Below, in pieces: positions 56,703 to 58,054 of a stretch of 64,000 nt of DNA. Within the stretch, counting starts at the first letter, position 1. Every line of letters starts with the position of its first letter. Made by a program: the position numbers and the translations under genes. The stretch comes from an uncultured Bdellovibrionales bacterium (GTDB lineage: Bacteria; Bdellovibrionota; Bdellovibrionia; Bdellovibrionales; JAEYZS01). Where the stretch lies: assembly GCA_964469265.1 (NCBI GenBank), contig CAYXYF010000003.1, positions 23,010 to 87,009 of the forward strand. Direction: 5' to 3'. Below the pieces are notes generated by a model that did no database searches, was not told where the DNA came from, and saw only the letters and a list, made by a program, of their open reading frames with translations.

Positions 56703-56954
56703 ATGGCAAAAGTTGTAATCTACACTAAAAATAATTGCGTGTTTTGTGATCGTGCTAAGAGTTTACTCAACTCAAAAAACGTTGCCTTTGAGGAACACAA
56801 CTTAGAAGGCAAATCCGATGAGCTCAGAGTCCTTATGGAAAAAACAGGAATGCGTACAGTTCCGCAAATCTTCATCAATGATGAATTGGTCGGCGGATTT
56901 GATGATCTCAATGCTTTAGAAAAAGAAGGCAAACTCAACGACCTGTTGAAGTAA
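56703..56954 (+). CDS. grxC: glutaredoxin 3-like (active site CVFC)
   Basis: VVIYTKNNCVFCDRAKSLL...TVPQIFINDELVGGFDDLNALEKEGKL parallels E. coli Grx3 along its full length. Confidence 0.85.
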   Translation: MAKVVIYTKNNCVFCDRAKSLLNSKNVAFEEHNLEGKSDELRVLMEKTGMRTVPQIFINDELVGGFDDLNALEKEGKLNDLLK

Positions 56955-56976
56955 TCACTTCAACAATGAAGAAAAT

Positions 56977-57021
56977 ATGGGGAAATGGTGTGAATAAAAT
57001 TCCGCAAGGCCCCATTTTTTT
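56977..57021 (+). terminator. weak candidate terminator for grxC
   Basis: ATGGGG...CCCCAT with a large loop, followed by T7. Confidence 0.3.
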
Positions 57022-57160
57022 CACCAGTTTTTCCGATATTTCCCTCACTGACATTAATTATATTCATAGCTCGAAGGCTCAATTCGTTTATATTGCCATT
57101 CAATTCAATTTATGACCATTTCCCAAAGCATTACTTATGCTGAGAATAAAATCTTTCAAT

Positions 57161-57189
57161 TTGAAATTATGAGGATTTTTTCATAAAAC
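57161..57189 (+). promoter_or_regulatory. candidate sigma70-type promoter for the unannotated RNA
   Basis: TTGAAA, 17 nt spacer, TAAAAC. Would place the transcription start near 57196. Confidence 0.25.
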
Positions 57190-57195
57190 ATAGTT

Positions 57196-57400
57196 GTTCC
57201 GAGGGGTCGGAACATTTGGTTGGTTTAGCATAAGTGCAAGACGTAAAGTCGATCAATCATGGGGACGAGAGGAGAGGAGAGGTAACCGGGGGGACAGTTC
57301 ACAAAAGATCGTGCAGGAATATACGATCTGAACTGCGGTTAGGGGTTAACAGATCAACACACGGGCCTTCTGCCTAATCAACAGAAGGCCCATTTTTTTT
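57196..57400 (+). ncRNA. candidate structured, GGA-rich small RNA (~200 nt), family not recognised
   Basis: No ORF present. 5' hairpin GTTCCGA-gggg-TCGGAAC (57196-57213). Purine block GGGGACGAGAGGAGAGGAGAGG (57261-57282). Long composite stem-loop TAACCG...CAGTTC..AGATCGT-GCAGGAATAT-ACGATCT-GAACTG-CGGTTA (57283-57341). Strong plus-strand terminator at 57363-57400, although the next gene is on the opposite strand. Confidence 0.5.
57363..57400 (+). terminator. Rho-independent terminator (plus-strand specific)
   Basis: GGGCCTTCTG-cctaatcaa-CAGAAGGCCC followed by A and T8. The opposite strand lacks a T-run. Confidence 0.85.
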
Positions 57401-57417
57401 GCCTACCGTTTTTAAAA

Positions 57418-57903
57418 TTATTTTTTCACGCGAAAGATTTTGATTTCCACGCGGCGGTTGACCGCAGCGTCTTGATCGTCTGTAAGGGGCTCTGTAGAAG
57501 CTAGCCAAGACGTCTGCACCTTACTGCGCTTTATACCAGCGTCTTTCATGGTACTTCGCACAGCTAAAGCTCGTTCCTTAGAGAGATCAAGATTAAGGTC
57601 ATCGGTCCCCGTTTGGTCGCTATGCCCGACGATTTGGATTCGCTGGTACTGCTTTTGATTTTTTTTGATCTCGAAAATAAGATCATCAAGGGATTTTCTA
57701 TCTTGCGCCTTTAATTCTGAAGAATTGGGATCAAAAGTAAAAATAAGAGTGCTCACCTCAAACATTTCAACGTTTTCTTGGCTTCCCATTTCGTAAACAT
57801 CTTGCAATGACAATGGCTTTTCAACGCGCCGAGGTCTCTCCTCCTTCGGAGAGTACGCACAAGCTGCAACTAATAAACTCAATAAAAGCCCTTTAAAAAC
57901 CAT
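57418..57903 (-). CDS. OmpA-family peptidoglycan-associated lipoprotein
   Basis: Lipobox LLVAAC. OmpA-like C-domain GHSDQTGTDDLNLDLSKERALAV...NRRVEIKI. Confidence 0.8.
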   Translation of the reverse strand: MVFKGLLLSLLVAACAYSPKEERPRRVEKPLSLQDVYEMGSQENVEMFEVSTLIFTFDPNSSELKAQDRKSLDDLIFEIKKNQKQYQRIQIVGHSDQTGTDDLNLDLSKERALAVRSTMKDAGIKRSKVQTSWLASTEPLTDDQDAAVNRRVEIKIFRVKK

Positions 57904-57977
57904 GGAAAGTACTTTATAGCCGCAAAATTATTTGTCAACTCAACGAATATCATCTATTACTCAGTGCTTATCAATGC

Positions 57978-58054
57978 GCGCCCTTAGCTCAGTTGGTTAG
58001 AGTACTACCTTGACATGGTAGGGGTCAGTGGTTCGAGTCCACTAGGGCGCACCA
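57978..58054 (+). tRNA. tRNA-Val (anticodon GAC), CCA encoded
   Basis: Acceptor GCGCCCT / AGGGCGC-A-CCA. Anticodon stem CTACC/GGTAG with loop TTGACAT. T arm AGTGG-TTCGAGT-CCACT. Confidence 0.93.

Follow-up and report, generated by a model that had tools for sequence, protein, structure and literature searches.

Within a 64,000-nt stretch of DNA from an uncultured Bdellovibrionales bacterium (GenBank assembly GCA_964469265.1, contig CAYXYF010000003.1, positions 23,010 to 87,009; hereafter the window), an intergenic gap of 463 bp (56955-57417) lies between grxC, on the plus strand, and a convergent gene for an OmpA-like lipoprotein (Table 1). The gap holds a previously undescribed, lineage-specific gene for a bacterial small RNA (sRNA), with a predicted transcript of ~205 nt that would extend from roughly 57194-57197 to 57400 on the plus strand. 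We favour, with a confidence somewhat short of an even chance, the view that the locus is a stand-alone plus-strand non-coding RNA gene and that its product is a new clade-specific sRNA acting in trans through exposed G-rich segments. The original prediction, made from the letters of the window, had proposed either a novel sRNA or a sponge of the CsrA/Rsm type. The first part of that proposal is well supported by the conserved promoter and terminator, the compensatory changes, and the absence of an open reading frame (ORF) and of any Rfam match; the sponge fared poorly in tests of its GGA motifs.

Layout of the intergenic RNA gene

A block of sequence immediately upstream of the RNA aligns in 7/7 contigs, its core being invariant, and contains the TTGAAA-17-TAAAAC arrangement that had been put forward as a plausible promoter. 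From the consensus match and the conservation only, we predict that it functions as a conserved sigma-70-like promoter. A consensus promoter scan passed over the TAAAAC block because this -10 lacks the final T. A FliA-type promoter with the Bdellovibrio consensus (TTAAG-N16-CCGATA) was rejected, there being no CCGATA in the block. Further upstream, the motif CAAAG-N5-CTTAT is kept in all seven contigs, one of them with CAAAC, and is a possible candidate for an activator site. The upstream activating sequence of the GacA/UvrY type is TGTAAG-N6-CTTACA; the spacing of the two motifs differs and only the AAG/CTT core is common to both, which amounts to a loose likeness. Further copies of the promoter block or of the upstream element, which would have been a sign of a regulon, did not occur above chance within the window.

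RNAalifold and single-sequence folds agreed on the architecture of the transcript, consisting of a 5' hairpin (P1), a domain with two small hairpins (P2), a linker, a composite stem-loop (P3) and the terminator; the 5' hairpin and the composite stem-loop had both been noticed in the original prediction. Fold z-scores were -3.5 for the window, and -2.3 and -5.3, respectively, for its two full-length homologs, L086 and L085. The P1 core, GTTCCGAGGGGTCGGAAC (18 nt), is identical in 7/7 contigs and occurs as a single copy in the window, and the sequence of P2 is nearly invariant among homologs. The linker has an unpaired probability of 0.7-0.85, and only its UGGGG and GAGnGGUrA motifs are kept in L085 and L086.

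The T8 tract directly follows a GC hairpin in 3/3 full-length homologs. As had been predicted, this strong terminator would work on the plus strand only; on the minus strand the hairpin is a poor terminator because its tail there is GUGUGUUGAUCUG. Our own scan passed over the terminator because the scan had a loop limit of 8 nt and the terminator loop measures 9 nt. At the other side of the gap, grxC is separated from the RNA gene by a hairpin and U7, the weak terminator already attributed to grxC, and a hairpin with a T-run occupies the equivalent position in L085 and L089.

Table 1. Features of the intergenic gap and its borders (positions of the window)
Feature	Position	Strand	Description
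grxC	56703-56954	+	
Weak intrinsic terminator of grxC	56977-57022 (about)	+	Imperfect GGGG...CCCC hairpin, then U7; fold -19 kcal/mol, z -2.0
Upstream element CAAAG-N5-CTTAT	57124-57138	+	From the 7-contig alignment; centred ~65 nt upstream of the predicted start
Predicted promoter block	57146-57189	+	Invariant ATAAAATCTTTC.ATTTG, includes the -35 TTGAAA
Predicted -35	57161-57166	+	TTGAAA, followed by a 17-nt spacer
Predicted -10	57184-57189	+	TAAAAC
P1, 5' hairpin	57195-57214	+	UGUUCCGA-GGGG-UCGGAACA; 8 bp, perfect; GGGG tetraloop is G tract A
P2 domain	57217-57259	+	UGGUUGGU pairs with AUCAAUCA, 8 bp, 2 G-U; encloses two small hairpins
Unpaired purine-rich linker	57260-57282	+	UGGGGACGAGAGGAGAGGAGAGG; contains G tract B and three GGA
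G tract B	57261-57264	+	
P3 composite stem-loop	57283-57341	+	Helices UAACCG/CGGUUA, CAGUUCA/UGAACUG and GAUCGUG/UACGAUC
G tract C	57288-57293	+	P3 interior
P3 apical loop	57314-57321	+	CAGGAAUA
G tract D	57342-57345	+	Within UUAGGGGUUAAC; identical in L086, GAGGG in L085
Intrinsic terminator	57363-57400	+	10-bp GC-rich stem, 9-nt loop, A + U8; 3' end of the RNA
Terminator, 5' arm	57363-57372	+	GGGCCTTCTG
Terminator, 3' arm	57382-57391	+	CAGAAGGCCC
T8 tract	57393-57400	+	
OmpA-domain lipoprotein gene	57418-57903	-	PF00691; convergent; conserved neighbour

Conservation and distribution

GrxC homologs with 70-76% identity led us to metagenomic contigs with the gene order fumC (minus strand), EVE-domain gene, grxC, a gap of 355-492 bp and the OmpA-like gene (minus strand). 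Copies of the gap are full-length in L085 and L086, which with the window make up the three homologs of the three-way alignment, and partial in L087, L088, L089 and L090. JGI sample 3300050046 contains at least 3 contigs with this synteny. Among the three full-length homologs, identity at the third codon positions of grxC is 45-55%, and over the first ~185 bp of the gap the three-way comparison gives practically no alignment (51-57% identity in a global alignment). The 55 bp before the 5' hairpin, containing the promoter, show 77-87% identity, followed by the 5' domain formed by P1 and P2 (80-87%), the middle segment (57-81%) and the terminator (62-87%), with identity falling to 36-48% after the T tract. 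Relatives with saturated neutral sites still conserve the element together with its promoter and terminator. On the evidence of the alignment, the footprint is that of a gene with a predicted beginning at the promoter and a predicted end at the terminator, and not that of a grxC 3' untranslated region (UTR). A lack of conservation in relatives had been named in advance as a point that would speak against the original prediction; what we found is a block conserved from promoter to terminator.

The conserved stretch amounts to ~260 bp and includes structure-preserving double substitutions. Paired cells made up 93.7% of the alignment cells examined, compared with 88.7% in shuffles (0/500 reached 93.7%), and eight pairs change on both sides, a number attained in 1/500 shuffles, with slid controls giving 0-3. 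By hand, in correctly registered helices, we counted two compensatory pairs in P3a, one in P3b and two in the terminator. The three compensatory pairs of P3 come from comparing the window with L086; in L085, the place of P3 is taken by an unrelated 13-bp hairpin. Analysis of covariation, the check proposed along with the original prediction, indicated that the stem-loop and the terminator keep their pairing through compensatory changes among the three homologs. Because it comes from three sequences, two of them close, this covariation is suggestive and statistically not strong. That the P1 stem never varies hints at a further, sequence-specific constraint, for example a site for a protein or an operator immediately downstream of the start.

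The window has no close relative among the GTDB species representatives, and at the level of 90% identity each of its flanking proteins is a singleton. The affinities of these proteins are with Bdellovibrionales: the product of the EVE-domain gene immediately before grxC shares 70-72% identity with its homologs in Bdellovibrio spp., and fumC is 70-73% identical. Comparison of the gap, by blastn and nhmmer, with 80 GTDB loci fetched through the EVE-domain protein returned no homolog; synteny was partly retained in these loci (fumC, EVE), which lack both the OmpA-like gene and the RNA. Likewise, more than 40 other Bdellovibrionales loci yielded no copy to nhmmer or to a P1-P2 covariance model, nor did the window yield a second one, and the same covariance model, run over 58 sources, recovered only the contigs already known. 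A scan of metagenomes with the OmpA-like protein gave only distant, irrelevant matches, the P1 core had 0 matches in viral contigs, and a literature search with the P1 sequence string returned nothing relevant.

The OmpA-like gene is also found beside the gap in the metagenomic contigs with the same gene order. After it, the window contains a tRNA-Val(GAC) gene at 57978-58054, and the same tRNA position is found in L085 and L086. Judging from these sequences, the conserved block comprises grxC, the sRNA gene, the OmpA-like gene (minus strand) and tRNA-Val, in a narrow clade of uncultured Bdellovibrionales. The promoter of the OmpA-like gene (57904-57945, minus strand) is of a strong TTGACA-N16/17-TATAAA type, and its -10 ends only ~7-10 nt before the ATG. 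The gene also lacks a Shine-Dalgarno (SD) sequence, and L085 and L086 agree with the window in all these respects, so that the OmpA-like mRNA probably has little or no leader.

In a sister lineage whose GrxC is 64% identical (L097:908-1686), the EVE gene is followed by a grxC that directly overlaps a DUF218 gene, with no gap, sRNA or OmpA-like gene; the window has its DUF218 gene at a distance of ~2.6 kb, on the opposite strand. The segment with the sRNA, the OmpA-like gene and the tRNA thus looks like a clade-specific insertion or rearrangement. Another lineage (L091-L096) has a different gene context. In L087:701-1154, and also in L088, the sequence is intact through the promoter and P1 and into the start of P2, after which it diverges; in L087, a transposase fragment (rve_3, with HTH_32 further on) occupies the minus strand from 807. 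The RNA gene of L087 appears to be truncated by an insertion sequence (IS) element, which suggests that this population can do without it, or else that the assembly is a chimera. Separately, L032 (CALQIT020000019.1), labelled 'MAG: Streptomyces griseus', carries a Bdellovibrio-like fumC (71% identical) and EVE gene (57% identical) and is likely a mis-binned contig.

Candidate modes of action

G exceeds C in the RNA region (64 G vs 38 C), which has six overlapping GGGG, a count that ranks within the top ~0.1% of windows on the plus strand and that none on the minus strand attains. GGGG runs are kept at four sites, mostly unpaired, and the conserved tracts have the forms GAGGGGU (P1 loop), AAUCRUGGGG, GUWAA..GGGGA and GUUAGRGGGU. 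We considered an intramolecular G-quadruplex made from the four tracts and rejected it by reasoning, as it would require loops of ~54, 23 and 48 nt and one of the tracts belongs to a closed tetraloop.

We propose that the RNA acts in trans as a regulatory sRNA whose working parts would be the UUGGUUGG segment and the four G tracts, conserved and for the most part unpaired. They would most likely base-pair with C/U-rich stretches of other RNAs, be they mRNAs or C-rich sRNAs, a mechanism that we prefer by analogy with RsaI, functionally the closest RNA known to us in this respect. Classical sponging of CsrA by multiple GGA is probably not the mode of action.

Several points weigh against this proposal. 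The promoter and the start site are predicted from a consensus match and conservation only. There are just three full-length homologs, two of which, the window and L086, are close (81-87%), making the covariation thin; it is confined to P3 and the terminator, and P1 and P2 never vary, so that their pairing is neither supported nor contradicted by substitutions. Duplex prediction between the sRNA and the translation start regions of grxC and of the OmpA-like gene gave duplexes of unrealistic length that did not consistently outperform shuffles, and no target was found in the DNA available. An sRNA that acts by base pairing usually has a seed rich in C/U and not in G, and the G tracts could equally be binding sites for a protein.

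The strongest rival takes up this last point: the RNA would titrate a protein, its exposed GGA and G-rich motifs sequestering CsrA or another binder of SD-like sequences. We regard this as unlikely. Each homolog retains 3-5 largely unpaired GGA, and the recurrence of G-rich sites fits a protein binder with several sites better than it fits a lone seed. An AGGAAU occupies an apical loop in 3/3 homologs, namely the P3 loop in the window and L086 and an extended terminator hairpin in L085. Bdellovibrionota encode a functional CsrA, and little is known of CsrA regulation in that group (PMC13443453). No csrA, hfq or fliW gene was found in the 64-kb window (csrA and fliW by tblastn), a result that says nothing on the whole genome.

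The GGA motifs themselves speak against a sponge. The original prediction counted six GGA within ~110 nt, which is correct, and called the RNA rich in them, which it is not: shuffles with the same base composition contain 5.5 ± 2.0, and of the 213-nt windows across the 64 kb, 4-5% hold at least six. The window, L086 and L085 have, respectively, 6, 4 and 4 GGA in 208-217 nt, as compared with 5.5, 5.4 and 4.8 in shuffles, equivalent to 1.9-2.9 per 100 nt. In CsrB, RsmY and RsmZ, the density is roughly 5-7 GGA per 100 nt. Only one of the five hairpin loops contains GGA (the P3 loop, CAGGAAUA), the others being GGGG, UAAG, GUAAA and CCUAAUCAA. Conservation of the sites is mixed, and most of them appear not to be kept: the three homologs have, respectively, 2, 1 and 0 GGA in the GGAG purine block, and the UGGGGA of the window is UGGGGU in L086, with the GGGGA of tract C kept in 3/3. 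The best-conserved parts are the hairpin with the GGGG loop, the P2 stem and the G tracts; GGGG, and not GGA, is the most conserved motif, and no Csr/Rsm model of Rfam matched the RNA. In a broader form of the proposal, to which we also give only a small chance, the GGGG tracts and the single AGGAAU loop would constitute a multi-site decoy for a global post-transcriptional regulator of a predatory lineage, either the FliW-type CsrA of Bdellovibrionota or else a G-tract-binding protein or set of C-rich sRNAs.

An improbable reading assigns the function to the minus strand. The OmpA-like mRNA would carry the region as a long, C-rich 3' UTR or give rise to it as an sRNA, and its CCCC and CU-rich loops would pair with SD sequences in the manner of RsaE/RoxS; C-rich loops are a known type of seed. 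In folding, the minus strand is no worse than the plus strand (z -5.5 vs -3.5), so that the energy of folding does not by itself tell which strand is functional. The terminator hairpin has no U tract in that direction, where transcription of the OmpA-like gene may read through, and P1 followed by ACUAUGUUUU was weakly flagged as terminator-like. However, 6-9 nt separate the stem of P1 from the U run that follows it, and L090 and L087 lack this run. The plus-strand helices contain 10 G-U pairs and no A-C mismatches; these G-U pairs would become A-C mismatches on the minus strand, where P2 does not form. A functional minus strand would also leave unexplained the invariant promoter-like block and the perfectly placed T8 of the plus strand. 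The G-U pairs, the T8 after the hairpin in 3/3 homologs and the promoter block upstream favour the plus strand as the functional one.

A riboswitch or cis-regulatory leader did not fit, the next gene being convergent and no riboswitch family matching the RNA. A more general cis-acting module, in which the RNA and its terminator would control the OmpA-like gene locally, by transcriptional interference, as an antisense partner of read-through transcripts or as an orphan riboswitch-like attenuator gating antisense transcription, seems to us quite improbable, slightly more so than function on the minus strand. The RNA gene and the OmpA-like gene stay side by side and other neighbours vary, only 17 nt separate the U tract from the stop codon of the OmpA-like gene, and the layout, in which the 5' domain is conserved and the 3' part variable, is reminiscent of an aptamer with its expression platform. 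Yet P3 sits between the 5' domain and the terminator, inspection of the three sequences revealed no conserved anti-terminator pairing, and, besides the lack of a riboswitch family match, the strong T8 terminator argues for efficient termination.

As for coding potential, the original prediction gave the size of the gap correctly and saw no credible ORF in it, and we found none conserved in relatives: no ORF in the gap is common to the three homologs, and nothing is shared with L085. Similar peptides encoded by the window and L086, in several frames of both strands, reflect nucleotide identity alone. A mini-ORF of 6-8 codons, whose AUG or GUG start lies directly in front of G tract B, is present in 3/3 homologs (MGTRGEER in the window, MGLKEEW in L086 and VGKREW in L085). 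That there is no RNA gene at all, and that the region is a conserved DNA element (a palindromic operator or regulatory region), as the perfect and unvarying 8+8 palindrome of P1 might suggest, or a gene for such a tiny peptide, is very improbable in view of the ~260 bp of conservation with structure-preserving double substitutions and of a mini-ORF that has no SD sequence, starts inside the P2 stem, varies in length and sequence and is accompanied by no longer shared ORF.

Our working interpretation is a trans-acting sRNA with exposed G tracts. Post-transcriptional control in Bdellovibrio-like predators is scarcely known, and the published sRNAs come from one strain and have no assigned function in the available part of the source (PMC3627812). 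The present locus adds a new sRNA family that is cleanly delimited, with its promoter, structure and terminator defined, and whose conserved G-tract signature offers specific sites for mutation. As it stands, it is one more lineage-specific sRNA in an uncultured clade, useful for annotation and as an Rfam seed, and unsurprising to a specialist. If the RNA were a decoy, for CsrA or for C-rich sRNAs, sponge-type regulation would be extended to a new phylum; we know of no sRNA that antagonizes CsrA outside the Gammaproteobacteria, and a decoy for CsrA would be the first.

Comparison with known RNAs

The Rfam scan suggested with the original prediction matched no family to the RNA, using Rfam 15 on the window at gathering score and on 56900-57480 at E up to 10, nor did any family match it in L085 and L086 at E up to 1; these searches included the Csr/Rsm models. 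The original prediction had also seen no likeness to 6S, SRP/4.5S, RNase P or tmRNA, and Rfam and ARAGORN agreed with it, finding only tRNAs in the window and no tmRNA near the locus.

CsrB, CsrC, RsmX, RsmY and RsmZ resemble the present RNA in being stand-alone intergenic sRNAs (100-370 nt) with an intrinsic terminator and several unpaired GGA, and the present RNA shares with them one A(N)GGA in an apical hairpin loop. Unlike them, it has a GGA density 2-3 times lower and no array of GGA-loop hairpins; its GGA appear to be poorly conserved and GGGG dominates, it matches no Rfam model, and it is not preceded by an upstream activating sequence of the GacA type.

Closer in phylogeny are the attack-phase sRNAs of B. 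bacteriovorus, APsRNA1-7 and merRNA (Karunker et al. 2013, PMC3627812). They are, like the present RNA, intergenic, lineage-restricted, from the same order and without an assigned function, and APsRNA1 is of similar size (~207 nt). No homology to the eight published APsRNA1-7/merRNA sequences, taken from the supplement, was detectable by nhmmer or blastn. The present RNA also contains no cyclic di-GMP riboswitch, according to Rfam, and, whereas several APsRNAs are described there as having a FliA-type promoter, its own predicted promoter is not of that type.

APsRNA1 (strain HD100, 499,375-499,581; supplement of PMC3627812) has 7 GGA in 206 nt and a fold z-score of -4.7, and its fold places GGA in four apical loops (AUGGAC, AUGGAA, GGA and AGG/GGA), in contrast to the single GGA loop of the present RNA. 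This predicted fold has an Rsm/CsrB-like architecture, and illustrates what an Rsm-like RNA of Bdellovibrionales could look like. The available part of the report gives no function for the attack-phase sRNAs and does not mention this architecture of APsRNA1.

The closest functional analogy to the preferred pairing mechanism is RsaI (RsaOG) of S. aureus, which uses its G tracks to pair with the C-rich motifs found in other sRNAs (bioRxiv 10.1101/278127). RsaI belongs to another phylum and has no sequence or structure homology with the present RNA; it has a long CU-rich unpaired seed for mRNAs, which the present RNA, with its purine-rich linker, lacks, and two G tracts instead of four. Both are nevertheless conserved sRNAs with a highly conserved 5' hairpin domain and a GGGG 'G-track' in or near the first hairpin.

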